Assembly: GCA_028866905.1 (NCBI GenBank)
Contig: JAGWHI010000002.1
Location: 7,219 to 71,218 of the forward strand
Source of the DNA: Candidatus Micrarchaeota archaeon
GTDB lineage: Archaea > Micrarchaeota > Micrarchaeia > Micrarchaeales > Micrarchaeaceae
Length of the DNA: 64,000 bases
Reading direction: 5' to 3'
Under the pieces are notes generated by a model. The model saw nothing but the letters and a program-made list of their open reading frames with translations. It made no database searches and was not told the DNA's origin. The translations under genes and the position numbers were made by a program. Shown here piece by piece: positions 38,794-55,484 of this stretch (the stretch's first letter is position 1; the number at the start of each line of letters is the position of its first letter).

Positions 38794-38823
38794 CCCATCC
38801 CCATATCATATTTCGCGCTCATC

Positions 38824-38835
38824 ATTTAATAAATG
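38824..38835 (-). promoter_or_regulatory. TATA-like ATTTATTAAA about 35 nt upstream of the ATPase start (possible internal promoter)
   Basis: AT-rich element in the 42-nt gap between genes. Recognised by position and composition only. Confidence 0.25.
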
Positions 38836-39651: not shown

Positions 39652-39668
39652 TATTCCCTCTTCGTCCG

Positions 39669-40502
39669 TTATATCACCTCCTCCTGGACGTTCTTGCTTA
39701 TCTGCTCGCTTATAGTCGAGAACGGAATCAGGTATTCCGGCTCTATGTAGTTGAGCAGCTCCTTGCCCGTTACTATGCTCGGCGTAACGCCGAAGGTCGA
39801 GCCTATGCCCGAAAGCAGCTCCCTGGCGTCCTGCTGCGCTATGCTCACGGCCTCGTACTCCTTGGCGCCCCGCGCAGACACTGTGGCGTAGTGCGTCAGC
39901 TCGAACGACTGGACTCCGCCTATGTGGTCGAGTATGTTGTGCCACATCGCCAGCTTGCCGCGCACCCTCTCTATGTCGCCCGGCGACCCGTTGTTCTGCA
40001 CGAGCTGGACCTCCTCGTTCTCGACCTTGCTTATCGTGTCGCGCAGCTGCTGGATGTAGTAGTCCTTGTTCATCATGTGGAGCTCAGCGGTGTACCTGGC
40101 CGGCGACTTGCTTATGCCCACAAGCCTGCTCACACGCCTGGAGAAGTCGAGCTTCTCATCGTCGCTCATCTCTGTCGCGGACCTGTATACGGGTATGCGT
40201 ATGTAGACCGTAGCTATGTAGTCCTCGCCGTCCTTCCTGATCACAGAGTCTGATGCGGTGGACAGCCAGTATGCGTCCTCGTTGCTAAGCACTATGTTGC
40301 TGCTCCTCTGCTGCATGAACGGCAGCAGCAGGTAGGTGTAGTATCTTGATGAGAACGCCAGGATGTCAAGCGCCATCGAAACTAGCAGCAGAAGCAGCTT
40401 TGCCGGTGCCGGTAATATGGTCAGAGGCGCTGATCCGGCTATTATCAGGACGACGACAGAGGATATGAAAAATCCCAGGAAGACGAATATCTTCTTGTCC
40501 AT
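39669..40502 (-). CDS. 2-TM protein with cytoplasmic domain of about 200 aa (VirB3 plus VirB4-N-domain-like, tentative)
   Basis: Two N-terminal helices, then SDSVIRKDGEDYIATVYIRIPVYRSATEMSDDEKLDFSRRVSRLV....YTAELHMM. This has the same order of elements as the start of the VirB4/TrbE N-domain. A TATA-like GGTATAAATAGG lies about 38 nt upstream. Confidence 0.55.
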   Translation of the reverse strand: MDKKIFVFLGFFISSVVVLIIAGSAPLTILPAPAKLLLLLVSMALDILAFSSRYYTYLLLPFMQQRSSNIVLSNEDAYWLSTASDSVIRKDGEDYIATVYIRIPVYRSATEMSDDEKLDFSRRVSRLVGISKSPARYTAELHMMNKDYYIQQLRDTISKVENEEVQLVQNNGSPGDIERVRGKLAMWHNILDHIGGVQSFELTHYATVSARGAKEYEAVSIAQQDARELLSGIGSTFGVTPSIVTGKELLNYIEPEYLIPFSTISEQISKNVQEEVI

Positions 40503-40580
40503 TACAACCAGCGCCGATTACGCTTCAGATTTAACCTATTTATACCTAACCTTGGGCATGCCTGTCCATCGATGTCGGCG

Positions 40581-41465
40581 CTACGGGACAGTATATCCGC
40601 TGGTCCACGTGCTGATGAATATCACGTTCTGCGTCAGGCCGCTGTAGATGTTGCCGCTGTAGTCCTGGGGGCCCCCGTTCAACTGCCACCAGCCCACAGT
40701 GGCCTGCGCGTTTATCGGCGCTCCGCCTATGCCCTCGAAGTAGAGCGCGCTGACGTCGTTGGACGAGAGTGCGGTGTTGTAGAGCTGTATGTTGGAGACA
40801 TATCCCTTGAAGTAGCTACCAGATGGGACGTATCCGGCCCCTATCGAAGCCGATCCGGAGAACGTCACGCTCGGCCGGACGTTGAGCGTCTCGGAGTAGG
40901 ACGCCCCGTCGACATATACTGTCGCTGTTGTTCCGCTCCCCGGGTACGTGAAACCTATGAAGTGCCACTTGCCGTCGTTAACGACGTTCGCAGATGACGT
41001 GGTTGTGCCGCATACCTCTGCAGTCGGATGCCCGCTATAGATCCCAAGGGCCCATATCGTTCCGGCGGTGCAGGCGCTGGAACTGCCGGGATTATTGCCG
41101 TAAGAGAACACCCACGGATAGTTCGTGCTTTGCGTGGTCTGCACCCATGCGAATACGCTTATAGCGTTGTCGCCCATGGGGAAGGAGTTCTGTGGTATGC
41201 TGGTTATGTTGCTCGTCTTCACGCCAGTAAAAGACGCTACGAACTGCGGCTCCTCGTTGTTGCAAAGGCCGCTGGTCTGGGCGAACTGGCTGGTGCCCGG
41301 CCCTTCCGGCCTGACTATGCTGCATGCGCCCCCCTGCGTCTTAGGCGCGCTGCCGTTGAACACGCCTATGCTGTACAGCGCAGTAAGGGCGACCGCGATT
41401 ATTATTATGGCCCAGCCATAGGTCATCAGGTATTCCATTGCGGATTGGGCCCTTAACATGCGCAT
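40581..41465 (-). CDS. class III signal peptide (prepilin-like) protein with LamG/concanavalin-A-like domain
   Basis: MRMLRAQSAMEYLMTYGWAIIIIAVALTALY is a textbook archaeal prepilin N-terminus. AISVFAWVQT...DGKWHFIGFTY...VYVDG...GYVSNIQLYNTALS is the LamG jelly-roll pattern. Confidence 0.75.
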   Translation of the reverse strand: MRMLRAQSAMEYLMTYGWAIIIIAVALTALYSIGVFNGSAPKTQGGACSIVRPEGPGTSQFAQTSGLCNNEEPQFVASFTGVKTSNITSIPQNSFPMGDNAISVFAWVQTTQSTNYPWVFSYGNNPGSSSACTAGTIWALGIYSGHPTAEVCGTTTSSANVVNDGKWHFIGFTYPGSGTTATVYVDGASYSETLNVRPSVTFSGSASIGAGYVPSGSYFKGYVSNIQLYNTALSSNDVSALYFEGIGGAPINAQATVGWWQLNGGPQDYSGNIYSGLTQNVIFISTWTSGYTVP

Positions 41466-41499
41466 CCCTTATCTAACATCTGGCAAGCATTAAATAGTT

Positions 41500-42633
41500 T
41501 CATATGAACGACCTGATCCTGCCGCCCATCTGGCTCGCGCCCCCTATGACGTTGGCCAGCTGGGTTATGAAGGCGTACGAGACGGTCGTTATCAGAGCAG
41601 GCCAGAACAGTATGAGAAGCCAGAAAGCGCTGAGGGAGTGCTGGGCGGAAGCGAGCGTGGTCACAAGCGGCGAGGTTGGGCTCAACGCGTTTACCTCTGC
41701 CCCTGTGCCTGCGCCGTACTTGTTGAGGGAAGCCGAGTACGCGGCCAGGTTGCTCTGCATGCTCGGCAGGGTGAAGTAGTATGCAATCGCGAAAAGCGAT
41801 GGCGTCACTAGGTAGAAGGCTATCGCTATAGCTACCATCATTCCGCCGAGCGCCCTGGTCGGGAAGAACGCCCGGAGCACTATGCCGGGCACTAGGAAGA
41901 CGGGTATCGCCGAGATGGCGAAGAACACTATGAGATAGTACTGCGCGTGGAGCGCCAGGATGCCGTCAGTCATGAGCCCGGCCAGTGTCACCGCAGGGTC
42001 TATGAAAAGCACTTGGAGTAGCAGCTTGAGCCTTCCGACGCTTGTGGCCCCTCCCTCCTCGCCCACTATTGGGAGCACCTGCCCATTGACATACAGGCTC
42101 TTCACCTCAAGGTTGTTGTAGAATTGGTCTGTTATGTAGACGTTGGTGAGCGAAGTGTACATCGTCTCAGTCCCGTTGATTGTGGATTGCAGCTGGTGGA
42201 GTATGTAGGGATATGGGCTGACGGGCCCGACAAAGACAGCAGGCAGTATGCCGAACAGCACTGCCGACAGGTAGAGGAAGAGCAGAACTATTATTCCGCT
42301 CGCCGTTGCCTCGTATATCTCGCCTATGCCGAAGTTTCGTATCCTGTCGCTCTTGAGTGCCGTGCCGATCATGAAGATTGCCGCTGCGACCAGGAAAGCG
42401 AGCATCACAGCGGTGAACGCGAGCGGAAGGTCACCGCACCATGTCTGCGCTATTTGCGAATTTATCGGCAGGTACCATGGCTCGTTCTGCGATATCTGCT
42501 GCTGGACCGACTGCGGGAGCTGGCTGCAGGACTGCTGCTGCGCTTGGCTCTGCTGAGCTGCGCCAGCCGATGCGGAAAGCGTCGCGATTATCGCAAGCGA
42601 TAGCAGCAAAAATGTTTTCTTGGACAACATCAT
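41500..42633 (-). CDS. polytopic membrane protein, paralogue family member 1 (VirB6/TrbL/CedA-like role proposed)
   Basis: Start trimmed to MMLSKKTF (ATGA overlap with the upstream stop). Signal/anchor helix, Gln-rich segment, motif GIVLRAFFPTRALGGMMVAIAIAFYLVTP. Confidence 0.65.
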   Translation of the reverse strand: MMLSKKTFLLLSLAIIATLSASAGAAQQSQAQQQSCSQLPQSVQQQISQNEPWYLPINSQIAQTWCGDLPLAFTAVMLAFLVAAAIFMIGTALKSDRIRNFGIGEIYEATASGIIVLLFLYLSAVLFGILPAVFVGPVSPYPYILHQLQSTINGTETMYTSLTNVYITDQFYNNLEVKSLYVNGQVLPIVGEEGGATSVGRLKLLLQVLFIDPAVTLAGLMTDGILALHAQYYLIVFFAISAIPVFLVPGIVLRAFFPTRALGGMMVAIAIAFYLVTPSLFAIAYYFTLPSMQSNLAAYSASLNKYGAGTGAEVNALSPTSPLVTTLASAQHSLSAFWLLILFWPALITTVSYAFITQLANVIGGASQMGGRIRSFI

Positions 42634-43817
42634 ATCACGCTTGTCAGGAGGGACATAAAGTCTATGCGTTCGCCGAAGGCCCTGGAGAAGTCCACTATGA
42701 ACGCATCCAGTATTATGAAGTTTATGAAGGGTATGAAGGTGAAGCCTGCGGCTATGAACAGCAGGGATGTCAGCAGGTTGGGATCCACGAAGTTTATGAG
42801 CGAGCACTGCGCGGCCGACTGCGTGATGGGCGCGACCACTTCAGACTGCAAAAGGCAGCCGGCCGTATTCAACAGTATGGTGAATCCAGCTTGCGTGCCG
42901 AACTGGACTATCGATAGCGCGTTCTGGGGGATCAGCGTAATTGTGGTTATGTTGGAATCTATGAAGCCATACGTTATGCTGACCAGTAGCGGGTAGATTA
43001 TCCCAAGGCCCAGGCCGAGCGCGATAAGAGTTCCGCCGAAAGACCTGGTCAGGCCGAAGGTCCTCGCCAGCAGGCCGAGGATTATGAAAAGCGCGAATAG
43101 GAACACGCTTGACGAGAGTATGAGCAATTGCACCTGGCTCAGCATTGTCAGGGTTATTATCGCCGAGTAGGATATGGAGGTCACCTGCTCCATGGACTGC
43201 GGATACAGGCTCGCGAGCCCGAAGCTGACGTTGAGTATAGAGTCGCCAGGTGGCGGGCCGAAGCCTGCAAGTGGCGACTTGGAGCCAACCTGGCTCGCGG
43301 TTGATGGTGCGGACTTGCCCACCGGCAGGTAGACGTTGAACCATATGCCAGGGGTAAGTCCAGTAACTATGGATGTGATGTACACCAGCGCAAACGACGT
43401 GTATGCGCCGCTGTTGAAGTTGCTTAGGTCGCACACCGCCAGGGTGTTGAGGCTACCTGCGGACGCGCATTGTGGCGGGATGAGCCCGACCTTCGAGAAG
43501 CCAGGCTGCGGGCTTAGCATCGTTATGTATGCTACGGAGCCGAACGCTACGAGCAGCAGCACGGACAGCAGCCCCTCGTATATCTGCGTACGCGACCAGT
43601 TCCTGGCGGCGCCGCTACCCGTTATGCCCGAGAGCATGTACACTATGGACGCTATAGCTATGACCAGGAGGACTATCGCGGTGGCCAGCGGTATCCAAGA
43701 GGTTGTGTCTATCGACGGCGTCTGCACAGGGCCCGCAGCGTAAATGACCGGCATAAGCAGCGACACCATTACGAACGCGGCCGGCAATGCCTTTGCGAGT
43801 TTAGACTGCAGCATCAT
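42630..43817 (-). CDS. polytopic membrane protein, paralogue family member 2
   Basis: Motif GLLARTFGLTRSFGGTLIALGLGLGIIYP. ATGA overlaps at both ends. Confidence 0.65.
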   Translation of the reverse strand: MMLQSKLAKALPAAFVMVSLLMPVIYAAGPVQTPSIDTTSWIPLATAIVLLVIAIASIVYMLSGITGSGAARNWSRTQIYEGLLSVLLLVAFGSVAYITMLSPQPGFSKVGLIPPQCASAGSLNTLAVCDLSNFNSGAYTSFALVYITSIVTGLTPGIWFNVYLPVGKSAPSTASQVGSKSPLAGFGPPPGDSILNVSFGLASLYPQSMEQVTSISYSAIITLTMLSQVQLLILSSSVFLFALFIILGLLARTFGLTRSFGGTLIALGLGLGIIYPLLVSITYGFIDSNITTITLIPQNALSIVQFGTQAGFTILLNTAGCLLQSEVVAPITQSAAQCSLINFVDPNLLTSLLFIAAGFTFIPFINFIILDAFIVDFSRAFGERIDFMSLLTSVI

Positions 43818-45013
43818 ATCACGTTCCTCAGCACATGTTTGGACTGCATGCTTGGCGCGCCGAGCAGCTGGCTCAGGTATTGGACGAAGTCAAGCGCGGT
43901 CAACAGCGAGAGCACCACCGCTATTATGGCGTATACCGACGGGACTATCACGTTCAGTACGAATGAGCACACGGTGTACTGGTAACCCTTGAAAAGATCT
44001 ACCATGGTCGGCAGATAGCTGGACGGGCTTGCGAATGTTATGCTGCTGCCTATGCTCTGCAGGGTGACCTGCTGCGGTGGAACGGGCGCAGCCGAGCCGA
44101 AGCATATGGTTGGCACGGCTGTTGAGAGCCCTGTTATGTCGGGCAGTGTCAGCATATAATACAGAAGCAACGGGAAGACTATATAGAAGCTGGCGAAGAG
44201 CGCTATGAACGCGCCGCCTGCGGCCCTGGTGAACGGCGTAGACCTTAAGACCACCCCGGCGAACAGGAAGAACGGGAAGACGTAGTAGAATACTGCAGGC
44301 AGCATGGATAGCGCGAGCATTGCCGCGAGAATCCCCCAGCTCACGTTGATCATTGTCGACAGCACCTGCGCTATAGCCGAAAGGCCGCTGAGCGGGGCGA
44401 CTATGAACCCGACACCGCCAGGCTTAAACGTTATGTATATTGAGCTTAGTATGTTGAGCGAGTTCTGCTCTGTAATCAGGGATATTATGCTTGAGAAAGG
44501 GTTGAGGGCGACCCCGGACAGTATATTGCAGTCTGATTGGAATACCGTAACGTTGAGCGAGGAGCCGCCGAGCGCGAACAGGCCAGATGGACCAGATATG
44601 ATATTTATTGCTGAAAATGTGCCAAGGAATACGTACACTACCGCTGCCGTTATCACTATCTCCCCCATCTCGACCTTTGCGAATCGCGTCAGCTTGTCTA
44701 TATGGAATGCGCTCCCTATGGCCCAGGCCAGCGCCATTATGCCGAGCATTACCCCGATCAGCGCAGTGGCAAGCGCTATAAGGCTGTTGAGCGCGAAAAG
44801 GTTCGACACGTCGGCGAAGCCCCTGTTGGAGGTGAAGAGCGCGTTGCATAGGGATGCCGAGCCGCCAGTCTGGCTCTGCGATTGCGTTGTGGCAGAGAAG
44901 ACTGTTGGGGAGGTCTGTGAGTACGAGCTTTGCGGCAGGGCGACCACCGCAAGCGCAGCTATCGCGATGACCGCAGCCGCGAAGCCAATGATCCCGTTTG
45001 CCACATCATTCAC
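43814..45013 (-). CDS. polytopic membrane protein, paralogue family member 3
   Basis: Motif GVVLRSTPFTRAAGGAFIALFASFYIVFP. Abuts its neighbours with a 0-4 nt gap or overlap. Confidence 0.65.
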   Translation of the reverse strand: MNDVANGIIGFAAAVIAIAALAVVALPQSSYSQTSPTVFSATTQSQSQTGGSASLCNALFTSNRGFADVSNLFALNSLIALATALIGVMLGIMALAWAIGSAFHIDKLTRFAKVEMGEIVITAAVVYVFLGTFSAINIISGPSGLFALGGSSLNVTVFQSDCNILSGVALNPFSSIISLITEQNSLNILSSIYITFKPGGVGFIVAPLSGLSAIAQVLSTMINVSWGILAAMLALSMLPAVFYYVFPFFLFAGVVLRSTPFTRAAGGAFIALFASFYIVFPLLLYYMLTLPDITGLSTAVPTICFGSAAPVPPQQVTLQSIGSSITFASPSSYLPTMVDLFKGYQYTVCSFVLNVIVPSVYAIIAVVLSLLTALDFVQYLSQLLGAPSMQSKHVLRNVI

Positions 45014-46552
45014 CTATATAAGGCGCGATAGCCCTGCCAGGGAGGTGTCGCCACCCAGCAGCCCGGAGAGGCCCAGTATCGCAGCTATCACTATCAGTAT
45101 ATTTATTATCGGCAGGAAATACGTCGATACGCCTATCATGCCATAGGCGCTCATGAATCCGTAGAACATGCCCAGCATGCCGTCGGCCGGACAGTTGTAA
45201 GGCAGCGGGAAATTTGGCGCACCCTTCTGGAACCCGAGCGCACCCACGTTCAACGATATGAAGGATATCACGTCGGGAGCCGGCACCATGGTCCACAGTA
45301 TGTCCTCCGACTCTGCCTCAACGAGGTTGCCGTCGCTTATTGTCTGCGGAAGCAATTTGTTCCCGAAGGCTGGGCCGCCAGGCCAGCAGGCGTAGTACTT
45401 CCCTATCGCCTTCATGCTCGGCTGCACGAAAAAGTTCGGCACGTATGCCGAGATGGACCTATTGGGGAAGACCGCAGTGTTGTTTGCTGCCGGGATGGCG
45501 AGCGTTGAGTTGGTGCTGGCGTTAAGCAGGCCTCCGAATCCGTACACTGATGCCGTGCTATTAGGCGAACTCGAGAACGCCGCAGCTGAACCATGGCCGA
45601 GCGCGAGATACTCTATCCCGAACACCGTGGGGTAAAATATCACCATGCCTATCGCTACAGCTATCAGGAGCCCTCCTATCTTCCGCGTCAGGAACACCGC
45701 CCTCAGCAGCAGGCCGCCGAAGATGAGGTACGGCCAGATGTATATGGACGACACTATTATGAGGAGCTGCGCCACGCTGGCCTGGAACGACAGGTCCATG
45801 AGGTAGGATATCACCTTCATCGAACTGTATATCATGTCGTAGCCGTAATAGGGCCTGAAGTCGAACTTGAGGTAGAACAAAGACTGCCCTGCATTCACGG
45901 TGGGGAAACAGCTCACCACGTTGGACCCTGGCACGCAGATTTGTATCGCCGGCCTCAGCCTTGACAGGAATCCCACGAACGAGTCCTCGACCATATAGCT
46001 GTTTAGGTTTGCCACTGACTGGTTTGTCAGGTTGGCGACCACGACACCAGTGGCGGCGAGCGGATACTCTATCTCTGCGGTGAGGCTGCTCTGCGGATAC
46101 CCGACTATGCCACACAGGCCAGGGAACGGCTGCTGCGGCGTCTGGGTCGTGCTGGGCGGCGCTGCGGCGTTTAGTACAGAATCCGCTTTGCCGAGCAGCT
46201 GCAGGTAGGTGGTATTGCTTATCTGGCTGCACAGTGACATTATTGACGACTGCGACAGCAGGCTGCCCTTGTTAAGCGACCCTTGCGCCTGGAATATCGA
46301 TGCGTACGACACAAGCGCGCCGATTATAATCATAGTAAGTATCACAGTTCCTATCAGCTGGTAGAACTCGTTCAGCGCGCCCTGCTTCGCCCCCTGGTTC
46401 CGCAGCAGCGTAGCAGCGAAGTACCATACTGCCACTATCATGGCGTCGAGCAGGAGAGCCGCTATAATCAGGGGCATTATGTCGGTCTGCACTGGCGAGA
46501 CCACAGGCAGCGCGGAGGAGGTGGCCGCCAGTAATATCTGCGATGGTGTCAT
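45014..46552 (-). CDS. polytopic membrane protein, paralogue family member 4 (longer external loop)
   Basis: Motif GLLLRAVFLTRKIGGLLIAVAIGMVIFYP. It has an extra C-terminal loop and helices. Confidence 0.65.
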   Translation of the reverse strand: MTPSQILLAATSSALPVVSPVQTDIMPLIIAALLLDAMIVAVWYFAATLLRNQGAKQGALNEFYQLIGTVILTMIIIGALVSYASIFQAQGSLNKGSLLSQSSIMSLCSQISNTTYLQLLGKADSVLNAAAPPSTTQTPQQPFPGLCGIVGYPQSSLTAEIEYPLAATGVVVANLTNQSVANLNSYMVEDSFVGFLSRLRPAIQICVPGSNVVSCFPTVNAGQSLFYLKFDFRPYYGYDMIYSSMKVISYLMDLSFQASVAQLLIIVSSIYIWPYLIFGGLLLRAVFLTRKIGGLLIAVAIGMVIFYPTVFGIEYLALGHGSAAAFSSSPNSTASVYGFGGLLNASTNSTLAIPAANNTAVFPNRSISAYVPNFFVQPSMKAIGKYYACWPGGPAFGNKLLPQTISDGNLVEAESEDILWTMVPAPDVISFISLNVGALGFQKGAPNFPLPYNCPADGMLGMFYGFMSAYGMIGVSTYFLPIINILIVIAAILGLSGLLGGDTSLAGLSRLI

Positions 46553-46561
46553 ACGTATAAC

Positions 46562-47764
46562 CTATATTCCGCTCCACAGCGGGGTTGCTCCTTCTATGCC
46601 GGCATTGAGCGCTTTCGAGAGATTTACTGCGAACGCTATCGTTATTCCGAGGTTCAACGCGAACAGCACGATCGCCTGAAATATGAATGTCGCCATTTTA
46701 GCGGTAAGGTCGTCTAGCCCGACCCACGGAGTAAGGAAGTTGCTGATGAAGTAGTTTCCCGTGAGGATGTTGCCAAGGAATCCAATGGCGTACGGGCTTA
46801 TGCTGAATCCCGGTATCGTAACTGTTGTCGCGCTGGTGGATGACACCGCCTGCTGGAAGAAGGTTGGCGGCAGATTCGATATCGAGAAGTTGAATGTGTG
46901 CAGGTACTGGTACGACGGGTTGGAGCTGCTGAACATCCATGTCATTATGTACGCGTCCATCGAGATGGTCAGCGGATAGACTATGTAGAACGCCACGGCT
47001 ATTGCTATCATTGAGTTGGCCGCGCTCCTCAATCCGCCGCCTGCGCCAGCGAACGCTATGGACCTCAGCGCAATGGCTATCGGAAGTATGATTACGAATG
47101 CGGTATATTGGGCCAGCGGTACTAATATGTATTGCAGCAACATGGCCCCAGTTGTCACTATCAGTATGGGGGAGAAGATGTCCAGATACAGCTTGCTCAG
47201 TATCGCGAAGGTGACGCCTATGTTGGTGCCTATGTACGGGGTAACGTAGACCGCGGTTCCTGCCGGCGCGCCGGACTTCAGCTTGAAAAGCGGCGTCCCT
47301 ACGTTGAACTTATTGAGGTACCCGCCAAGGGCGATGTTGAGCAACGCCTGCGCGCTGGCGTAGTAGAGCTGGCCCGTCAGCGCTGAGCTCATCGCATCCG
47401 TGTAGACCTGCGAGAGCATGCCCATTCCCGTGTTGAACGTGAGGTTGCCTATATAGTAGTCAGCGAACTGGAACGGTGACATCTGCTGGCCAGTGATCCC
47501 CTGGCTCAACGACGACGATACGCCGCACACTGTCGAGGCCGTAAGCGCGAGCACCATGATGATGACGCCGCTTATGACCATCTGGATTATCTCTCCGCGC
47601 ACCATTGAGGTAAACCTGGTCCTGATGTTTGTCGGAAGGTACCTGCTGAACATGTAGACTGCAGCGATGGTGAGCAGCCCGACCAGTATAACTGTGAAGT
47701 TGACCCCGAGCCAGCCGCTTGCGTAGGTTGAGCCACCGTACAGTGCACATGTGTCTACAGCCAT
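46562..47764 (-). CDS. polytopic membrane protein, paralogue family member 5 (divergent motif)
   Basis: Motif variant IAIALRSIAFAGAGGGLRSAANSMIAIAVAFYIVYP. Confidence 0.6.
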   Translation of the reverse strand: MAVDTCALYGGSTYASGWLGVNFTVILVGLLTIAAVYMFSRYLPTNIRTRFTSMVRGEIIQMVISGVIIMVLALTASTVCGVSSSLSQGITGQQMSPFQFADYYIGNLTFNTGMGMLSQVYTDAMSSALTGQLYYASAQALLNIALGGYLNKFNVGTPLFKLKSGAPAGTAVYVTPYIGTNIGVTFAILSKLYLDIFSPILIVTTGAMLLQYILVPLAQYTAFVIILPIAIALRSIAFAGAGGGLRSAANSMIAIAVAFYIVYPLTISMDAYIMTWMFSSSNPSYQYLHTFNFSISNLPPTFFQQAVSSTSATTVTIPGFSISPYAIGFLGNILTGNYFISNFLTPWVGLDDLTAKMATFIFQAIVLFALNLGITIAFAVNLSKALNAGIEGATPLWSGI

Positions 47765-47768
47765 TGTT

Positions 47769-50504
47769 TCACGCGAGCTTGAACTTGCCTAGCGACAGCT
47801 TGTTCCTTATCGTGCCGCCCAGCACATTTGCAATCGATTCTATAATAACGACCATTATCACCAGGTCGAAGATGAAGAGGATGAACTGAAGCAGCATCCC
47901 GAACGAGTATCTGGTCAGTGCGTTGATCGGGGGATACACGCTGGCGGCCTGCGGCAGCAGGTAATAGCCGTTGGTCTGCTCGGAGTACCCGCAGAACGAC
48001 CCGAATATGGTCGATATGCCGTCCTGCCATCCCGGCCCTGACGACGGGGAGCCCGCATAACTGTACACCGCCTGCGCGCCGGATACGAAGGGCCAGAGCA
48101 CGGGTATGTTTCCGCAAGGCAGCGGAGGGTTCGGTGGGTTCTGCAGCATCAGGAACGAAGTTGCGTAGTTTGTCAGCGGGATATTGAAGAGCAGCATCAG
48201 CGTCGGGTATATTATCGATATCCCTATGCCTAGCGCTATCATCGTGCCGCCCACTGGCCTGAGGAACGGGAATGCCCTTAGCACTATGCCGATAGGCAGC
48301 AGTATTCCGAGCCCTATGAACGCCATGAGCGGGAGCAGGCTGAGCTGTATCGAGGCGAGCAGCATCACAGGCACTATGATAAGCGAGAGCATCGATGTCA
48401 GGAATGATATGCCGCCAGTATCGCCGCTGTCAAGCACAGTGTTTTGGTAGATGTATTGCTTGTAGACCCCGAAAGTCACGTCCACGAGATTGGGGTACGG
48501 GGGCGGCAATATCGGATAGTCCGCATACACATCTATCTGCAGCGACTTGATCGCCGAGTAGGCGAGCGATATGCCTAGCGATTCGCTGAATGCCGACTGC
48601 GCGGCCAGGGACTGGGGCAGCAGGTACTGGTTTGCGACAGCCGCATAGAGGTTGCCAAGATTCGTTGCAAGGGAAGCGGACTGGGCGACCGTGCTGTTGG
48701 AATACAGGCCTGACGGCTGCTGCGGAGTTATGCCGACCAGGCTGACAGCGACACTGCCAAGTATCACTATGACGGAAAACACTATCGCTATCACGAAGAG
48801 GCTCTTCGTCGCCTCCCAGAGCTCGGTCTTGTACCAGTTCTTGAGCCCCTCGACCCTCAGCACCTCTCCCACCATGTAGGCTATAGCGACGAACAGTAGC
48901 GACAGCATAAGGCCTATGAATGCGAATGGCAGCGCGCTTGTCACGCATTGGCCGAAGAATTGCGGGAATATCTGGAATGTTCCGCCGACCGCCCTGCCGA
49001 AACTGCTGAAGCTACACGCCTGTGTTATGCCCGCGCCAGTAACGTTGACGGGCATACCCTGTATCACTGTGAGGGTCGCCGATTCCGTATTTACGCCGTC
49101 GCTTGCCGTGATCGTGTGCGTGCCTGGCGTGGTGTTTACGCCCTTCGTGGTGTTCGCGACGGCCAGGGAATAGTTGAAGGAGCTCTGGAATGCTGAGCTT
49201 ACCGGTATCTTGGCGATTAGCTTGCCGTCGTACTTAAGGGTTATGTTTGTCGCAAGCGCGGAAAATCCGCTGCCGGAGATCGTAACGCTGCCGCCCCAAT
49301 ACGATGACGTGGGACTGATGGTTAACGATGGCGTGACATTGAAGTACGCTACCGCAAAAGGCGGAGGCGCTGATGGGGTGGGCCCTTGGGTCGGTGTTGC
49401 TGTAGCGGATTGCGTTGTCGGCGTAGCGTTCGATGTCCCGACTTGGGCCACTATCTCGTGCTTCCCTGAGCCTGACTGGGGAATAGGGAACACAGCCACG
49501 AACGAGCCAGGCAAAGGATCAGAAGTGGAGTTGGTTACCACCTTCTGCGGTATTGTTGCTGCCTCAACGCCATCGTATGTTATGTTAACAATCGCAGACG
49601 CAGGGAACCATACCCCAGATATTACTGCCACAGTTCCTACATGGCCCTTCGACGGCGTTACGGTTATGTACGGCGTCGGTATTGGGCCTACGGGCTGCTT
49701 CTGTGTCGTGTATAGGCCAGACCAGACCGGCTCCCCCTGCTGCGTAAATGTGAGGTTGGATCCGACAACGAACCCGTTCGTCCTGTTGCCTATCTCTCCG
49801 ACACCGAACGGATAGCTCTGCTGCACCGATTGCGCGGTTGTGTAGACGCTTCCGTTGCTTACGGGAACGAAGGCCGTACCGTTGTAATAGCTTACGTTAG
49901 TGAACTCGACGACCTTGAGCAGTTCCCCTGTGGCGTTCGTGCCATTGTACTCCACTGAAGCGACCGGCTGGCCGCCTGAGGATTTGGTAGCGTTGATCGT
50001 TGCGCTGCCTATCTGCGCGCCGTTGAAGTACACGCTCCAGCGGTTTCCGTTCGCCTTTATCGCGTAGCTGTTAATCGTGCCGTCCGGGCCTGCGGATCCG
50101 TCTGGCCCGTAATTCGTATAAACCTGCTGGCCGGACCCAGGCTGGTAGCTCCAGAACCAGGCAGCCTGTCCGTGGGTTAGGTGCACAGTCCCGGTGCATC
50201 CGAGCGCGCTGCAGCCGGTCGGGAACTGGCCGGTCTGGTTTGGGAAAAGGTAACCCGCCTTTATAGAGGCGCCGTTTGATAGCGATTCGCCGATCCATGC
50301 GCTGGTCGTGTTGCCCTGCTGGCCCAGGTTCTGCACCACAGTGACTATGTTGGTGCTCGCGCCGTAGTTCGGTGAGCTCCCGTTCGCGAATATGCCAGTC
50401 TGCACATCCTGGGGGGATGATGAATTCGCGTATGCGCTGTTCGAGAGGAGCGCGAGCAGCACGACTGCCGCTAAAAGTAGCGAGGCTCCCTCCCTGACAG
50501 GCAT
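47769..50504 (-). CDS. 911-aa fusion of a signal peptide plus ectodomain of about 500 aa (lectin-like N-domain and two IPT/Ig-like modules) with a C-terminal membrane domain, paralogue family member 6
   Basis: Signal LLLAAVVLLALLSNSAYA. Ig-like modules TVTPSKGHVGTVAVISGVWFPASAIVNITYDG and LTISPTSSYWGGSVTISGSGFSALATNITLKYDG. Membrane part carries GIVLRAFPFLRPVGGTMIALGIGISIIYP. Confidence 0.7.
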   Translation of the reverse strand: MPVREGASLLLAAVVLLALLSNSAYANSSSPQDVQTGIFANGSSPNYGASTNIVTVVQNLGQQGNTTSAWIGESLSNGASIKAGYLFPNQTGQFPTGCSALGCTGTVHLTHGQAAWFWSYQPGSGQQVYTNYGPDGSAGPDGTINSYAIKANGNRWSVYFNGAQIGSATINATKSSGGQPVASVEYNGTNATGELLKVVEFTNVSYYNGTAFVPVSNGSVYTTAQSVQQSYPFGVGEIGNRTNGFVVGSNLTFTQQGEPVWSGLYTTQKQPVGPIPTPYITVTPSKGHVGTVAVISGVWFPASAIVNITYDGVEAATIPQKVVTNSTSDPLPGSFVAVFPIPQSGSGKHEIVAQVGTSNATPTTQSATATPTQGPTPSAPPPFAVAYFNVTPSLTISPTSSYWGGSVTISGSGFSALATNITLKYDGKLIAKIPVSSAFQSSFNYSLAVANTTKGVNTTPGTHTITASDGVNTESATLTVIQGMPVNVTGAGITQACSFSSFGRAVGGTFQIFPQFFGQCVTSALPFAFIGLMLSLLFVAIAYMVGEVLRVEGLKNWYKTELWEATKSLFVIAIVFSVIVILGSVAVSLVGITPQQPSGLYSNSTVAQSASLATNLGNLYAAVANQYLLPQSLAAQSAFSESLGISLAYSAIKSLQIDVYADYPILPPPYPNLVDVTFGVYKQYIYQNTVLDSGDTGGISFLTSMLSLIIVPVMLLASIQLSLLPLMAFIGLGILLPIGIVLRAFPFLRPVGGTMIALGIGISIIYPTLMLLFNIPLTNYATSFLMLQNPPNPPLPCGNIPVLWPFVSGAQAVYSYAGSPSSGPGWQDGISTIFGSFCGYSEQTNGYYLLPQAASVYPPINALTRYSFGMLLQFILFIFDLVIMVVIIESIANVLGGTIRNKLSLGKFKLA

Positions 50505-50538
50505 GCTAGAGTTTCCAAGACAAGGTATTTATCCCTGA

Positions 50539-51273
50539 TTATCGCTTGAGCAGGGGGAATTTCTTCATGTACATCTGGCTCTGCAGCACCACTATGAACG
50601 GCAGTATGAAGAGCCCGTTGAACACCAGGAGCGCATACCTTGAGGCCGCTGTCCCGCCGAACGCAATGAAGAGCAGGTCGAACACGCTCACGAGCAGTAT
50701 GACCACTACAATCCAGAGCAGAGTGTAGTCGAGGCGCTTCGCGAAGAAGTTGGCGCTCGCCTGCATGGCGTGCACCAGGCGCTTCTCGTCTATCACAATG
50801 GAAGACGGCGCGTAGAGGAAGAACGGGAAGGCGATCAGCGCTATTATTGAGGTGACCACCCCAGTCAGCGACGGGACAACCGCATAGGAGGCCATGGCGG
50901 CGAGAACTATTATTATAGTGTAGAGCAGGAGGGCCAGGAAGACCTTGCCCGTGTACTTCTCGAGGCTCCTTATCACGTCGCTCTTTATCTTGGTGCTCGT
51001 CCTCGTGTGCTTGACCACCACGTTTATCATCACCATGGCGAAGCTGAAGAAGAGCAGCGAGAAGAGAGTTGCGGCCACTATGACGGCAGTGTCTGCCAGG
51101 CTCAGGCTTCCCAGGCTAGCCAGCCTGACGAAGGTTCCGCCGACGTCGTTGTACGTCGGGAAGGCCGCGAAGAGCGGTATGAGGAGCGCTATCACGAACG
51201 ACAGCGAGAAGAGCAGCAGGAGCTTTATGTTGCCGAGGTAGGTGTTGACCGCGTGCATGACTACGTTCGCCAT
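50539..51273 (-). CDS. polytopic membrane protein (244 aa), first gene of the minus-strand operon
   Basis: Six hydrophobic helices with no family motif. A TATA-like TTTTATACC lies about 30 nt upstream on the minus strand. Confidence 0.55.
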   Translation of the reverse strand: MANVVMHAVNTYLGNIKLLLLFSLSFVIALLIPLFAAFPTYNDVGGTFVRLASLGSLSLADTAVIVAATLFSLLFFSFAMVMINVVVKHTRTSTKIKSDVIRSLEKYTGKVFLALLLYTIIIVLAAMASYAVVPSLTGVVTSIIALIAFPFFLYAPSSIVIDEKRLVHAMQASANFFAKRLDYTLLWIVVVILLVSVFDLLFIAFGGTAASRYALLVFNGLFILPFIVVLQSQMYMKKFPLLKR

Positions 51274-51361
51274 GGTATCTGACTACTATTGCATCAAAAG
51301 GTATAAAATACGGCGGTCATAATGGTTGCGCCTGCGCGCACATACGACGAAAAATACAGCA

Positions 51362-51375
51362 ATATATAAATATTA
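51362..51375 (+). promoter_or_regulatory. TATA box ATATATAAATATTA about 27 nt upstream of the ATG at 51395
   Basis: The position and composition fit an archaeal promoter driving a leaderless or near-leaderless mRNA for the repeat protein. Confidence 0.4.
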
Positions 51376-51394
51376 TCTATGCGGCTATTTTATC

Positions 51395-54300
51395 ATGGGA
51401 AACGGGATGGCGCCCGTCAGGAGAGCGTTGCTGTTGGCCATTGCAATGGTGGTCTCTCTAGCGCTCAGCGCGACTGTCGTTTACGCCCAGGGCACGCTCG
51501 GGGGGCAGATGACGATAACCCCGCAGAACCCGGTAATAACAATAGGGCAGCAGGACACCATATCGCTCAGCGGCCAGGTCACAAACGGCACGCAGCCCTT
51601 CTCTTTCGAATGGTTTGTCCAGAATCCCGGGGCAAACAGCTATGTTCCGCTCTCTTCTCAGAACGGGGCCGTATCCATAGCGGCCACCCAGGCATCCCAG
51701 CTCGGCACTTACAGCTTCAAGTTCGTGGTAACAGACGCTAACGGCAACCAGCTGACATCCAATATCGCAACCGTGCAAATCGTCAGTTCGGTGGCCTCCT
51801 CGGCCAATGTGACGGTCAGCCCGCCGTCTGGGACGCTTAAGCTCGGCAGCAGCATCACGCTCGCAGCGAGCGGAGCGCCGATAACCGCAGGGTCTTCCAA
51901 CGGATGGAATTTCCAGTGGTACGTGCAGCCGCCCGGATCTTCGACTTACCAGCTGATCGGCGGCGCGACCTCTTCGTCCTTCATAGTTATAGCGTCAAGC
52001 ACCTTTGTCGGAACTGGAGTCAACTACTATTCGCAGACGGGCACGTACAACTTCGAGATAATAGCCTCGAAGGGCTCGACTAGCGTTACCTCAGCGCCTG
52101 CTACGATCACGATCGTTCCGACAATCCAGACGCCGCTGGTTGGCTCTATAGTGGCGAGTCCGCAGCTGTCATCGATAATACAGGGAAACAGCGACACGAT
52201 AAACATACAGGGCACTGTCACAGGGGGGCAGCCGCCTTACACCACGTCATGGTACGTCGAGAACCCCGGCAGCACGACATGGCAATTCCTTTCAAACTTG
52301 AACAACAACCTGCCATTCACGACCTCGACCAGCACTAAGCCAGGAATCTACAACTTCAAGTTCATAGTGAGCGACAGCACAGGAGCCAACGACAGCTCCA
52401 ACATAGCCTCTGTCGATGTGACGCCCTCTAACGGGGGGCCGGGAGTGAACAGGACAGCGCCGTTCCAGGGTTCGGTAAGCGTCACGCCCATCGGCACTTC
52501 GGTGGGCCAGGGTTCATCCGTGGTCCTCAACGGCTACGAGTTCGTAAGCGGCGGGAACAAGCCCTACACCTTCGCGTGGTACTACCAGCCGCCGGGATCT
52601 GGATCGTTCGAGGTTGCGCCAGGACAGAACGGCGGAAGCTCGTACACTTTCACGACTTCGTCTTTCACACCTACAGGAAGCTACATATTCGAATACAGGG
52701 CGTACGACGCGAACCTTGCAGAGGTCGATTCCAACGAGGCGTTCGTGACTGTTACGACCCCGACGACAGGACCAGGCACATCGCCCTCTGTGCAGATAAC
52801 GCCCCAGAGCTCGATAATAACTTCAGGGCAGCCGGTGTACTTCAGCGCCCAGCTCATAAACGACAATTCCGGTGCTACGCACTACCAGTGGTACGAGAAC
52901 GGCCAGTCGCTGGCGGGGGAGACGGACGGTTCCTATACCTTCTGGTCCACGTCCCAGGCCCCGGGAACATACACGTTCTATGCGGCTGTGACCGACGGTT
53001 CGGGAAGGGTGTTCAACTCCACAAACGTGACAGTGGTAGTGCAGCAGAGCGCAGGAGTCAACGGGCAGGGGCTCACCGGCACGATCAACGTTTACACAGG
53101 CAAGATGACGGACACAAACGGAAACATAGAGTACCTGTCGTACGTCACGCTTGGCCAGGGCGGCACGCAGACTATAACCGCCAACGACACCATATCGGGC
53201 GGCACTCCGCCGATTAGCTTCCAGTGGTACATTGAGGGGCCGAACGACTACGCTTTCAGGCCGATATCCGGCGCGAACAACGCGTACAGCTATCAGTTCG
53301 CGACCTCCAGCGCAACGCAGTCTGGGACCTACAAGTTCCAGCTCATAGCTACAGACCAGAACGACAACCAGGTCACGTCCACGGTCGCGTTCGTCAACGT
53401 CATTGGCGGCTCCACGTCAGGCGGTTCCACTACGACCATACCGTCTACATCAGGCTCGTCCAACCTTGCTGGCCAGATAACCATATCGTCCACCTCCTCG
53501 AGCGTGCAGTACGGCGGCAGCGCCACATTCACTGTGAGCGGCCAGCTGAGCGGAGGCGTATCGCCATACACTTACGAGTGGTACATACAGAACCCCAACT
53601 CAGGGACATGGCAGACGTACGCCTCTGGCAACGGCAACCTCACATTCACGCCGACCAGCACGCAGCAGGGGCTGTACAGCTTCGAGTTCGTGGTAACCGA
53701 TGCGACAGGGAAGACGGTGGCATCCAACATAGAGTCCATAAACGTGCTCGCGGGCCCGGGAAGCAGCCAGAGTACGACCACAATGCCGCAGCAGGGCGGA
53801 GGATCGCAGTCGCTGCAGGGCGCGATAACGATAACGCCTGCGAGCGGAACGCTCGTGATTGGCGGGCCTACCGACACCATATCTGTGAGCGGAAGCCTGA
53901 GCGGCGGCAAGGCGCCATATACCTTCCAATGGTACGAACAGCTCCCGGGTAGCAGCAACTGGCAGCCGCTCTCGTCCCTCAACGGAGCGATCACTGTAGG
54001 TGCTACGTCAGGCAGCACCACGCCAGGCGCCTATGGTTTCCAGTTCGTTGTCACTGACAGCTCGGGCCAGACCATAGTTTCCAACCAGGCGACTGTGCAG
54101 ATAGTGAGCGCTGGCAGCACGACTACTATAACTGGTGGCGGCGGCAACACTGGCGGCACCGTAAGCCCAGCGGAACGCTGCAGCGGAGGATCGATAACGG
54201 CCAGCTCGACAGCTTCATCGCTCAGCGTGGGCCAGAGCGCGACGCTCTCGGAATACACCACAATAAACATCAACAACTGCACCACTGAGGGGTGGTATGT

Positions 54301-54802
54301 CCAAAACCCGTACACCAGCTCGTACCAGCAGATCTCCCCTGGCGTAGGGCCGTACACTTTCTATGCTACCGGCGGGACTGGAATCGGAACCTTCAACTTC
54401 GAGTACATAATCTACAACGCCAGCGGCCAGGTCGCGGCGTCTAACCCAGTAGCCATAACGGTCGTGGGTCCGCAGGGGTCCGGCAGTGGCAGTGGCTCTG
54501 GCAGCGGATCAGGTAGCGGTTCAGGACAGGCCAGCATATCGGCTTCGGCATCGGAGGTCGCCGCAGGGAGTTCGGTGACAGTGTCTGCCAGCGGATACTC
54601 CTCAAGCTCCACCTACCAGTGGCAGGTGATGGCGCCTGGCGGAAGCTGGGAGAACATCCCAGGAGCGACATCGCAATCGTACACCTTCCTTGCAGGCTAT
54701 GGCCCGTTCTCCACATACGGGACCTACCAGTTCCAGCTGGTTGTCACGCCAAGCACAGGAGGCAGCTACACCACTTCCTCGGTTTCCGTTTCTGTTCAGT
54801 GA
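51395..54802 (+). CDS. secreted 1135-aa protein with about ten tandem Ig-like repeats and a (GS)8 linker; putative adhesin or surface fibre
   Basis: Signal peptide MGNGMAPVRRALLLAIAMVVSLALSATVVYAQG. About ten units of 95-105 aa share P-[YF]-[TS]-F-[QE]-W-Y-x-Q-x-PG...W/Y-Q...G-x-Y-x-F-x-[FL]-[VI]-[VA]-[TS]-D. No C-terminal TM or sorting signal. Confidence 0.8.
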   Translation: MGNGMAPVRRALLLAIAMVVSLALSATVVYAQGTLGGQMTITPQNPVITIGQQDTISLSGQVTNGTQPFSFEWFVQNPGANSYVPLSSQNGAVSIAATQASQLGTYSFKFVVTDANGNQLTSNIATVQIVSSVASSANVTVSPPSGTLKLGSSITLAASGAPITAGSSNGWNFQWYVQPPGSSTYQLIGGATSSSFIVIASSTFVGTGVNYYSQTGTYNFEIIASKGSTSVTSAPATITIVPTIQTPLVGSIVASPQLSSIIQGNSDTINIQGTVTGGQPPYTTSWYVENPGSTTWQFLSNLNNNLPFTTSTSTKPGIYNFKFIVSDSTGANDSSNIASVDVTPSNGGPGVNRTAPFQGSVSVTPIGTSVGQGSSVVLNGYEFVSGGNKPYTFAWYYQPPGSGSFEVAPGQNGGSSYTFTTSSFTPTGSYIFEYRAYDANLAEVDSNEAFVTVTTPTTGPGTSPSVQITPQSSIITSGQPVYFSAQLINDNSGATHYQWYENGQSLAGETDGSYTFWSTSQAPGTYTFYAAVTDGSGRVFNSTNVTVVVQQSAGVNGQGLTGTINVYTGKMTDTNGNIEYLSYVTLGQGGTQTITANDTISGGTPPISFQWYIEGPNDYAFRPISGANNAYSYQFATSSATQSGTYKFQLIATDQNDNQVTSTVAFVNVIGGSTSGGSTTTIPSTSGSSNLAGQITISSTSSSVQYGGSATFTVSGQLSGGVSPYTYEWYIQNPNSGTWQTYASGNGNLTFTPTSTQQGLYSFEFVVTDATGKTVASNIESINVLAGPGSSQSTTTMPQQGGGSQSLQGAITITPASGTLVIGGPTDTISVSGSLSGGKAPYTFQWYEQLPGSSNWQPLSSLNGAITVGATSGSTTPGAYGFQFVVTDSSGQTIVSNQATVQIVSAGSTTTITGGGGNTGGTVSPAERCSGGSITASSTASSLSVGQSATLSEYTTININNCTTEGWYVQNPYTSSYQQISPGVGPYTFYATGGTGIGTFNFEYIIYNASGQVAASNPVAITVVGPQGSGSGSGSGSGSGSGSGQASISASASEVAAGSSVTVSASGYSSSSTYQWQVMAPGGSWENIPGATSQSYTFLAGYGPFSTYGTYQFQLVVTPSTGGSYTTSSVSVSVQ
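54476..54526 (+). repeat. imperfect GGY-AGY/TCN hexanucleotide tract encoding (Gly-Ser)8-Gly
   Basis: Read directly as GGGTCCGGCAGTGGCAGTGGCTCTGGCAGCGGATCAGGTAGCGGTTCAGGA. It sits between repeat 9 and repeat 10 of the large protein. Confidence 0.9.
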
Positions 54803-54870
54803 CGGGCACTACCCCTATCCCTTCCCGTGGCCCATCGGCAATACCGACCGCGCTGGCGCTACCTGCCATG

Positions 54871-54894
54871 GAGAATAAATGAAGGAAAAGAAAC
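54871..54894 (-). terminator. T/pyrimidine-rich tract directly after the stop of the 143-aa gene
   Basis: The minus strand reads GTTTCTTTTCCTTCATTTATTCTC, starting 3 nt after the TGA. Confidence 0.3.
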
Positions 54895-54896
54895 GC

Positions 54897-55328
54897 TCAG
54901 CAGCTGCCCTGCGGGAGCGTGCCGTTGTTCGCTATCTGCTGGAGGATGTATGGCGCAGCAACAGCGATTATCACTCCGACTATTCCACCCATGATCATAC
55001 CCATGCCGTATCCGGTCACGGTTCCCTTCGTCTGCGCCGGAAGCACGTGCGCGCTTGCGTAAAGCGCAGCGCCGAGGATCATGAGCACCAGTCCGAGTAT
55101 GAATATGACGCTCTTGACCGTTGTGCATATAGTGGTTATGGTGTTCTGGACGTTTGTTATTCCGCCCTGGCCCACCGTAGAGCCGCCGGTGCCGACGGTC
55201 GAGCTGCCCGAAACCGTGACCTGTCCGTAAACGGCCAGCGTTCCGAACATCGTGGCGAACATCGTAAGCAGAAATGCGTATCTCGTGAATAGGTCGTATC
55301 CTTGTGCCAGAATGTTGGATATCTTCAT
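54897..55328 (-). CDS. small protein with signal/anchor helix plus two-helix hairpin; VirB2/TrbC/CedA1-like pilin candidate
   Basis: 143 aa. N-terminal hydrophobic YAFLLTMFATMFGTLAVYGQ, Gly/Thr/Ser linker, helix KSVIFILGLVLMILGAALYA, short polar loop with K, then helix GMGMIMGGIVGVIIAVAAPYIL. This is the architecture of conjugative pilins. Confidence 0.5.
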   Translation of the reverse strand: MKISNILAQGYDLFTRYAFLLTMFATMFGTLAVYGQVTVSGSSTVGTGGSTVGQGGITNVQNTITTICTTVKSVIFILGLVLMILGAALYASAHVLPAQTKGTVTGYGMGMIMGGIVGVIIAVAAPYILQQIANNGTLPQGSC

Positions 55329-55484
55329 CTCATCACAGGAGGGGTTCCCTCGTTAGGTCTATATGCACCGACTAGATTTAAATATGTTAGTGTTTTTAGG
55401 AACTGCGTTGGCCGGCGATAACCAGCGATTGCCGTCCTCACTATTTATTAAAGCTTAATCCTGCAATCTATACTGCTTAGGTCG

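Follow-up and report, generated by a model that had tools for sequence, protein, structure and literature searches.

By what means DPANN archaea hold on to their hosts and obtain material from them is still an open question, and one small gene of a Micrarchaeota genome brings it to a particular point: does this gene encode the pilin of a machine derived from a type IV secretion system (T4SS)? The gene lies at 54897..55328 on the minus strand of a 64,000-nucleotide stretch of DNA, called the window below, which covers positions 7,219 to 71,218 of contig JAGWHI010000002.1 (assembly GCA_028866905.1, Candidatus Micrarchaeota archaeon). Its product has 143 amino acids (aa), and a reading of the letters alone, hereafter the sequence-only reading, had seen in it a candidate VirB2/TrbC-type pilin. 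Our results show that the gene, the first of a conserved cluster that also encodes a VirB4-like ATPase, specifies an exported protein with a two-helix hairpin of TrbC/VirB2 type, and that this protein is itself conserved. We propose, with a probability of roughly 0.6, that the gene encodes the precursor of a pilin-like subunit of the VirB2/TrbC superfamily, which would serve a chromosomal, T4SS-derived apparatus conserved in Micrarchaeota, a DPANN lineage. The cluster context is the strongest evidence for this proposal, and it is supported by a match to the TrbC family at the level of the whole protein family.

The gene and its product

The open reading frame (ORF), listed with its relatives as P0001, starts with ATG, and its translation includes KSVIFILGLVLMILGAALYA, SAHVLPAQTKGTVTGY and GMGMIMGGIVGVIIAVAAPYIL. 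The hydrophobic leader, the Gly/Ser/Thr spacer, the two helices and the Lys-containing loop that the sequence-only reading had described were all borne out by the translation and by an AlphaFold2 model of the precursor. This model has a mean predicted local distance difference test score (pLDDT) of 66, with helices at residues 3-40, 57-92 and 98-133 and disorder at residues 39-55.

The leader (residues 1-35, 55224..55328, minus strand) has a basic n-region with K2 and R16, followed by a hydrophobic h-region of about residues 17-35 that ends in AVYG↓Q. A deliberately crude scan with the (-3,-1) rule places the predicted signal peptidase I site there, between residues 35 and 36, and so supplies the cleavage-site prediction that the sequence-only reading had recommended. 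The spacer (residues 36-56, 55161..55223, minus strand) is rich in Gly, Ser and Thr and is predicted to be disordered and extracellular (pLDDT below 50 at 39-55). Helix alpha1 (residues 57-92, 55053..55160, minus strand; pLDDT ~70-83) contains Cys68 (55125..55127) and the transmembrane core VIFILGLVLMILGAALYA. The inter-helix loop (residues 93-101, SAHVLPAQTK, 55026..55052, minus strand), with its conserved P and K/R, is predicted to be cytoplasmic while the protein is embedded in the membrane. Helix alpha2 (residues 98-133, 54930..55037, minus strand) carries the Gly-rich packing motif QGYGMGMIxGGIVGVIIA..AP, seen in the alignment, the model and the column frequencies. The C-terminal tail NNGTLPQGSC (54900..54929, minus strand), predicted to be extracellular, holds an N-G-T sequon and ends in Cys143, which the alignment and the column frequencies mark as conserved. 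The tails of the mature pilin lack basic residues and the single conserved Lys is in the loop, so that an out-in-out hairpin fits the protein well. Identity as an archaeal type IV pilin was considered and rejected: its leader is of the Sec type and 35 residues long, a hairpin of two helices follows, and no class III signal is present.

Downstream, as the sequence-only reading had noticed, it converges with the gene of a giant repeat protein (1158 aa, 51326..54802, plus strand), with 94 bp between the two stop codons. The terminator that it had also pointed out corresponds to a T-rich tract, GCGTTTCTTTTCCTTCATTTATTCTCC, at 54868..54896 (minus strand), directly 3' of the pilin stop; archaeal terminators use T-rich tracts of this kind, and the tract is a candidate for one. 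Upstream, the gene diverges from that of an archaeal-type threonyl-tRNA synthetase (ThrRS) with an archaea-specific editing domain, and the intergenic region (55329..55484) contains TATA-like A/T-rich boxes, TTTAAATA, for both genes. The opposite-frame ORFs that overlap the pilin gene are the usual by-product of a G+C content of 57 %.

Relatives and conservation

A collection of proteins clustered at 90 % contains 55 relatives of the pilin at E<=0.01; those with a name all come from Micrarchaeota, Micrarchaeia or 'Marsarchaeota' metagenome-assembled genomes, and none has a recorded Pfam domain. An exhaustive search of a 50 % library (1.84 billion representatives) with a hidden Markov model (HMM) gave 382 family representatives at E<=1e-3, 222 of them at E<=1e-10, and the named members are again nearly all Micrarchaeota. 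At the level of loci, with one genome taken per GTDB species, 42 were found, 40 in Micrarchaeota or one of its subgroups, one in 'Marsarchaeota' and one in an 'Acidiferrales bacterium'. The last (L009, DATLRT010000039.1, labelled 'Candidatus Acidiferrales bacterium') has an archaeal ThrRS and the whole Micrarchaeota cluster aboard, and is therefore probably mis-binned. The 143-aa ORF is a real, conserved gene, and its distribution makes a Micrarchaeon the almost certain source of the window.

An alignment of 32 relatives (A1) has the core (N)xIC..Y..V..VIFILGL.LMILGAALYAGAHVMPGQ.KG..QGYGMGMI.GGIVGVIIA..AP.IL......C, in which P97 of the loop is invariant and K101 nearly so. Column frequencies taken over 211 domain instances give G at 99 % and Y at 98 % in helix 1, and P at 95 % and K/R at 98 % in the loop. 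Two cysteines bound the domain: one ahead of helix 1 in 85 % of the 211 domains, with C68 of the window protein sitting three residues later, and one at the domain end in about 91 % of the domains extending to this column, which in the window protein is the C-terminal residue, C143. The N-terminus is poorly conserved in sequence across A1, being always basic and then hydrophobic, and the spacer differs in length among the relatives. The same crude scan of leaders, applied to 192 full-length members, found an N-terminal h-region in 176, a K/R preceding it in 155 and a site fitting the (-3,-1) rule in 174.

The conserved cluster

In 31 of the 42 loci the pilin gene lies directly ahead of, and on the same strand as, the gene for W02, a 244-aa membrane protein. 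The conserved co-directional order is pilin, W02, six polytopic paralogs, W10, W11 and a VirB4/CedB-like ATPase. This comparison covered flanks of 10 kb; the ATPase appears in every locus whose flank extends that far, and the six paralogs wherever the contig allows. Locus L001 gives the arrangement in full: ThrRS on the minus strand, an unrelated 140-aa ORF, the pilin, a protein of 213 aa, six of 355-465 aa, two of 278 and 277 aa and a DUF87 ATPase of 505 aa; every gene but ThrRS is on one strand. A BLAST comparison of L001 with the window returned one-to-one orthologs in the same order for W02, the six paralogs (41500-50504), W10 and W11. The pilin gene also keeps its place beside ThrRS in 12 of the 42 loci, and ThrRS is found by the pilin in L001 too. 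A minimal variant is seen at L036 (9923-18253) and, truncated, at L033: the pilin gene stands directly ahead of W10, W11 and the ATPase, with W02 and the six polytopic paralogs missing; in L036 the genes W13-W16 follow the ATPase. These comparisons make the pilin gene the first in a conserved cluster, which in the window spans about 33219..55328. The sequence-only reading had placed it next to the cluster; it does adjoin the other genes, and is more exactly the first member of a co-directional series that leads to the ATPase.

All the conserved partners in the window are on the minus strand. W02 (50539..51273), the second gene of the cluster, is polytopic and has orthologs 56-58 % identical in L001 and L004. 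The six tandem polytopic paralogs (47769..50504, 46562..47764, 45014..46552, 43814..45013, 42630..43817 and 41500..42633) are candidates for VirB6-like proteins. They share the motif LR..FTR..GG..IA and an invariant R...R/GG hairpin motif, and their orthologs occur in the same order in many loci; an ortholog of one is annotated in the cultured Ca. Mancarchaeum acidiphilum. W10 (39669..40502) and W11 (38836..~39672, start codon uncertain) each have two transmembrane helices and a soluble domain of about 200 aa, with orthologs 53-57 % identical. They are weak paralogs of each other (E 0.002), stand always just upstream of the ATPase, and may be stand-ins for VirB3 or for the N-terminal domain of VirB4. 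Searches of Pfam, NCBIfam and PDB sequences with the six paralogs, W02, W10 and W11, consensus queries included, gave nothing useful. An AlphaFold2 model of the last paralog (41500..42633) has a pLDDT of 84.8 and a predicted template-modelling (TM) score of 0.79, and its best natural Foldseek matches are stalk chains of the R388 T4SS (8rtd_L, 7o3v_F/G/J and 8rtd_H). The matches are weak, with probabilities of 0.90-0.98 and E of 0.045-0.12 for the first four and a probability of 0.75 for 8rtd_H, E values up to 0.39 and TM-scores of 0.26-0.39. From the entry titles and chain lengths we take the matched chains to be TrwI/VirB6, which is suggestive of a VirB6-like fold in the model.

The ATPase (505 aa, 37276..38793) matches the Pfam families DUF87, AAA_10 and the TraG P-loop domain. 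Its best NCBIfam models are the VirB4-like CD1110 (7.5e-20), CedD (1.5e-19), CedB (7.7e-18) and TraC (1.1e-17), followed by HerA models; the scores all lie far under the equivalog cut-offs (64 bits against 700 for CedB), and express similarity at the superfamily level. Its matches among PDB sequences are HerA, for part of the domain, and the C-terminal domain of VirB4 (4ag5), for residues 59-327. Judged by these matches, it is a motor of the VirB4/CedB/HerA superfamily with a slight preference for VirB4. Downstream of it are four genes, W13-W16 (36975..37292, 36590..36970, 35790..36518 with a coiled coil, and 33219..35621, an 800-aa membrane protein), whose orthologs keep the same order in L036 and for which Pfam gave only weak coiled-coil matches.

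The window is a stretch of archaeal chromosome. It also holds AspRS/LysRS-type and LeuRS-type synthetases, topoisomerase VI B, isocitrate dehydrogenase and one tRNA-Cys, and scans of the window proteins found no relaxase, VirD4-type coupling protein or integrase. Given these housekeeping neighbours, the conserved ThrRS synteny and the lack of a detected integrase or relaxase, the origin of the cluster as a mobile element is unlikely.

Likely assignment to the TrbC/VirB2 superfamily

The one prominent family is TrbC/VirB2 (Pfam PF04956), which is matched weakly, under its cut-off, by 15 of the 32 A1 relatives (best E 2e-4), and the family T4SS_pilin (PF18895) by nine of them. Against PF04956, a score of 27.3 bits (E 4.4e-6) was obtained with the HMM consensus of the 32 sequences and one of 31.2 bits (E 2.7e-7) with the consensus of the 211 domain instances; the latter covers profile positions 8-98 of 98 and exceeds the curated gathering cut-off of 27.9 bits. 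Reversed and shuffled consensus controls gave no TrbC match, and their best spurious matches were of about 13-16 bits. A single residue adds to the likeness: the invariant Cys64 of VirB2 (NNIC, ahead of helix 1) occupies the same place as the N-x-I-C motif of the pilin family. The homology of the pilin to the TrbC/VirB2 superfamily is, on these profile comparisons, likely but not proven, and its membership is provisional.

Could this small membrane protein be unrelated to VirB2, for example a holin-like protein, an accessory subunit of a transporter or a stress protein, and owe the likeness merely to its two hydrophobic helices? Hydrophobic two-helix proteins do yield spurious profile matches, as did a shuffled control that matched TraL_transposon at E 0.017, and the hhalign and Foldseek tests given below were negative. 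However, the holin and transporter-accessory families, which the sequence-only reading had itself named as the outcome to watch for, all fell short of E 0.01 in Pfam, NCBIfam and PHROGs, the Pfam family Holin_SPP1 reaching only E ~2. Moreover, the TrbC match runs over the full length of the profile, exceeds the curated cut-off with the consensus and disappears in the reversed and shuffled controls, and a random membrane protein would not be expected to lead a cluster containing a VirB4-like ATPase, always in the same position, in dozens of genomes. We regard an unrelated protein as improbable. A holin or phage origin was rejected separately, as the PHROGs scan contained no holin. Taken together, the identity of the 143-aa protein as a VirB2/TrbC-type pilin, which the sequence-only reading had put forward as a candidate, is supported at the level of family and context.

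Variant architectures and the weight of the evidence

The family is not uniform in architecture. The simple form seen in the window makes up 138 of 199 representatives. In 41 others a large exported domain lies between a canonical signal peptide and the C-terminal hairpin; these domains are Cys/Ser/Thr-rich or Ig/PKD-like and are often joined to the hairpin by a GS-rich linker (examples are P0060, P0085, P0157, P0184, L004:10649-12439 and L001:1145-1990). Nine have long C-terminal extensions. Because large exported domains are thus carried at either end of the hairpin, both of its ends are expected to be outside the cell. Three further members, P0056, P0057 and P0058, are tandem 'polyproteins' of 4-7 hairpin units, each bounded by Cys, and P0057 has an exported N-terminal domain in addition. 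We know of no such architecture among conjugative pilins. Multiplication also occurs at the level of genes: arrays of 3-6 pilin copies lie upstream of the cluster in L014, L015, L027 and L048, and a search of the window found no second copy there.

Several results weigh against the identification as a pilin. The family consensus passes the PF04956 cut-off, but the window protein alone, for which the sequence-only reading had suggested this comparison, has no PF04956 match in the Pfam scan even at E<=10; it returns only noise from Pfam and NCBIfam, with no Ced-type match in the latter, and nothing meaningful from PHROGs. PDB sequence searches with the pilin, the family profile and the consensus found no match to a solved structure. 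An hhalign comparison of A1 with 24 Agrobacterium-type VirB2 sequences (A3, a narrow subfamily) gave a probability of 0.9 %, with only helix 2 aligned, in register; hhalign of the pilin family with a single VirB2 sequence, and with the polytopic paralogs (a VirB2-VirB6 relationship having been reported for Ced and Vir), was likewise not significant. A Foldseek search of PDB with the model of the whole precursor (pLDDT 66, leader included) returned no match at E<=0.001, and its 50 best matches contained no pilin; DgkA and alpha-pore-forming toxins ranked first, which is expected when the query is a generic set of three helices. Simple helical hairpins are poorly suited to Foldseek. The fold matches to VirB6 are not significant by E-value and low in TM-score, the ATPase has a likeness to HerA as well, and large extra domains or tandem units occur in about 30 % of the family representatives, which is unusual for polymerising VirB2 pilins. 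The identification draws on sequence, model and context.

The variant architectures bring in the main rival explanation, that the hairpin is a module derived from VirB2 that docks or anchors in the membrane and does not polymerise. It would act as a structural or docking subunit of a translocon and, in the fusions, would anchor Ig/PKD-like adhesin domains. The 41 exported N-terminal domains, the nine long C-terminal extensions and the three tandem multi-hairpin proteins among the 199 representatives all speak for it, as does a fusion of Ig repeats to the hairpin that fills the slot adjoining the simple pilin in L004, and so does the failure of Foldseek to retrieve a pilin with the whole-precursor model. 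On the other hand, the simple form prevails, and its size and layout are those of processed conjugative pilins; the extreme conservation of the Gly-rich helix and of the loop suggests defined contacts between subunits or between subunit and machine; and the arrays of divergent copies parallel the pilin arrays of Patescibacteria (PMC12102498). We consider an anchor of this kind unlikely, although it deserves more weight than any other alternative to a polymerising pilin.

Apparent insertions and other genes of the window

Two genes of the window interrupt the conserved series. One is the 1158-aa secreted protein with Pfam PKD/Ig matches (51326..54802, plus strand), which separates the pilin gene from the rest of the cluster; it consists of about ten repeats with the motif GG..PYT..WY, with a (GS)n linker and no membrane anchor. 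The other encodes a 294-aa protein with a Pfam LamG domain (40581..41465, minus strand), in whose sequence a class III (type IV pilin-like) signal, MRMLRA↓QSAMEYL..., can be read. The L001 and L004 clusters have no counterpart of either gene, and neither turned up within the cluster at any of the 42 loci; for this reason both look like lineage-specific insertions. The repeat motif of the PKD giant recurs in the N-terminal domain of the L001 pilin fusion, and an Ig-repeat fusion lies beside the simple pilin in L004; the link between the pilin cluster and Ig/PKD adhesins is a recurrent one. The sequence-only reading had remarked that the locus encodes two types of filament subunit. This is correct for the window, but the class III LamG gene appears to be an insertion.

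The LamG gene raises the question of whether the pilin might instead be an accessory of a type IV pilus system, made up of the class III LamG protein and an A24-like peptidase, with no relation to a T4SS. The class III protein is encoded within the cluster, a weak match to A24 prepilin peptidases is found at 27945..28832, and type IV pili and expanded LamG genes have been reported for Micrarchaeota (PMC5498576). Yet the LamG gene lacks an ortholog in the L001 and L004 clusters and escapes detection within the cluster in all 42 loci, no FlaI/PilB-type ATPase or FlaJ/PilC platform protein was found among the scanned cluster genes, and the 143-aa protein has no class III signal. Such an accessory role is, in our judgement, very improbable, and we retain the T4SS-derived pilin as the preferred reading.

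The gene with the weak A24 match adjoins two neighbouring ORFs of about 490 aa (28861..30342 and 30346..31815, minus strand), which are similar in composition and have no Pfam match. Elsewhere in the window, a membrane protein of the exosortase/archaeosortase family is encoded at 14635..16176 on the plus strand (PF09721, E 2.7e-19), and sorted surface proteins are therefore implied in this genome.

Proposed mechanism and significance

If the gene encodes a pilin, its Sec-type leader, the anatomy of which is clear, would insert the protein into the membrane, and signal peptidase I would cut after AVYG35. The mature pilin of about 108 aa would then sit in the membrane as a hairpin with both ends outside and the P..K/R loop in the cytoplasm. 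As a speculation, the two conserved Cys at the outer ends could staple the termini by a disulfide bond, mimicking the head-to-tail cyclisation of T-pilin and TrbC. The VirB4/CedB-like ATPase, together with its two partners with two transmembrane helices each and the six VirB6-like paralogs, would extract the subunits and build a conjugative-type pilus or the lining of a channel, by analogy with Ced/Ted and the bacterial T4SS. The resulting structure may mediate contact, and the exchange of DNA or other macromolecules, with a Thermoplasmatales host or with other cells, as the lifestyle of these archaea and the parallel with Patescibacteria suggest. We infer both the formation of a filament and the function of the pilin from such analogies.

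A wider proposal can be put forward as a tentative one, with clearly less than even odds. The cluster would be a machine fixed across the Micrarchaeota lineage, in which a Cys-stapled VirB2-type pilus or conduit, with adhesin-fused and tandem variants, operates with six VirB6-like paralogs and a VirB4-like ATPase that is separate from its two 2-transmembrane partners. It would link the cell to its Thermoplasmatales host for the uptake of DNA, nucleotides or macromolecules, as the archaeal counterpart of the essential T4SS of Patescibacteria.

Several studies provide the background to these proposals. Ced and Ted are archaeal systems of DNA import, and the paper that describes them makes no mention of DPANN or Micrarchaeota (PMC9905601). 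Patescibacteria have a relaxase-free T4SS with arrays of VirB2-like pilins, which was recently found to be essential for their epibiotic lifestyle (PMC12857230). The paper on the Mancarchaeum genome goes no further than type IV pili, the LamG expansion and Sec. With the exception of nanohaloarchaeal giant proteins with VirB4-like domains (PMC10266531), the literature searched describes no VirB2, VirB4, VirB6, Ced, Ted or T4SS-like system for Micrarchaeota or DPANN; this includes the Micrarchaeum co-culture paper, the ARM-1 paper and a 2025 review of T4SS. Within that literature, the Micrarchaeota pilin cluster appears to be undescribed. The locus offers a concrete, conserved candidate for the Micrarchaeota equivalent of the Patescibacteria T4SS, and the idea is testable in the available co-cultures of Micrarchaeota and host (PMC5498576, PMC8975820). 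If it is true, VirB2-type pilins and Ced/Ted-like systems extend beyond Crenarchaeota, and new architectures, namely the terminal Cys pair, the adhesin fusions and the tandem polyproteins, are added to those of known pilins.

Comparison with the closest known systems

In anatomy, the protein resembles the TrbC/VirB2 pilins (PF04956), such as the T-pilin of A. tumefaciens and TrbC of RP4. These have a long leader and two hydrophobic helices, joined by a short loop that holds a conserved basic residue; both of their termini are outside, as predicted here and supported by the fusions to exported domains; the Cys of the N-x-I-C motif just ahead of helix 1 corresponds to the invariant C64 of VirB2; and the gene is found together with that of a VirB4-type ATPase. 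Unlike these systems, the present one is archaeal and chromosomal, and neither a relaxase nor a coupling protein was seen in it. Helix 1 of the Micrarchaeota protein is about nine residues longer, and the mature protein is also longer (~108 aa), with a G/S/T spacer. Its C-terminus, the place of head-to-tail cyclisation in VirB2 and TrbC, has a second conserved Cys, and the relatives of the protein include adhesin fusions and tandem polyproteins.

In composition, the cluster recalls the Ted and Ced systems (TedC of Pyrobaculum, CedA1 of Aeropyrum and Sulfolobales; PMC9905601), in which a trio of VirB2-like pilin, VirB6-like protein(s) and VirB4-like ATPase has been 'domesticated' in archaeal chromosomes. 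The predicted signal peptidase I leader ends before Gln in TedC (AVA↓QA) as it does here (AVYG↓Q). The Micrarchaeota cluster differs in having six VirB6-like paralogs instead of one, additional conserved genes (W02, W10, W11 and W13-W16) and a DPANN host lineage. No similarity to the Ced/Ted components was demonstrable at the sequence level, the CedB and CedD matches of the ATPase being far under the NCBIfam cut-offs.

The Rvh T4SS of Rickettsiales (PMC2653234) belongs to an unrelated lineage with an unrelated envelope, and the VirB6 homology of the Micrarchaeota paralogs consists of weak fold matches only. The two nevertheless have in common the tandem expansion of large, VirB6-like polytopic proteins, which in Rickettsiales occurs in an obligate symbiont.

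In lifestyle, a parallel is offered by the T4SS of Patescibacteria (candidate phyla radiation, CPR; PMC12102498, PMC12857230). These organisms belong to another domain of life, and their systems have recognisable parts of the monoderm MPF-FATA type (VirB1/3/6/8 and VirD4), whereas in the Micrarchaeota cluster only the pilin and the ATPase can be recognised by sequence. In both cases, ultrasmall episymbionts possess a chromosomal, relaxase-free, T4SS-like locus, in which genes for VirB2-like pilins lie near that of the VirB4-type ATPase, often as arrays of divergent copies in Patescibacteria and as sets of three to six copies in relatives of the Micrarchaeota gene.

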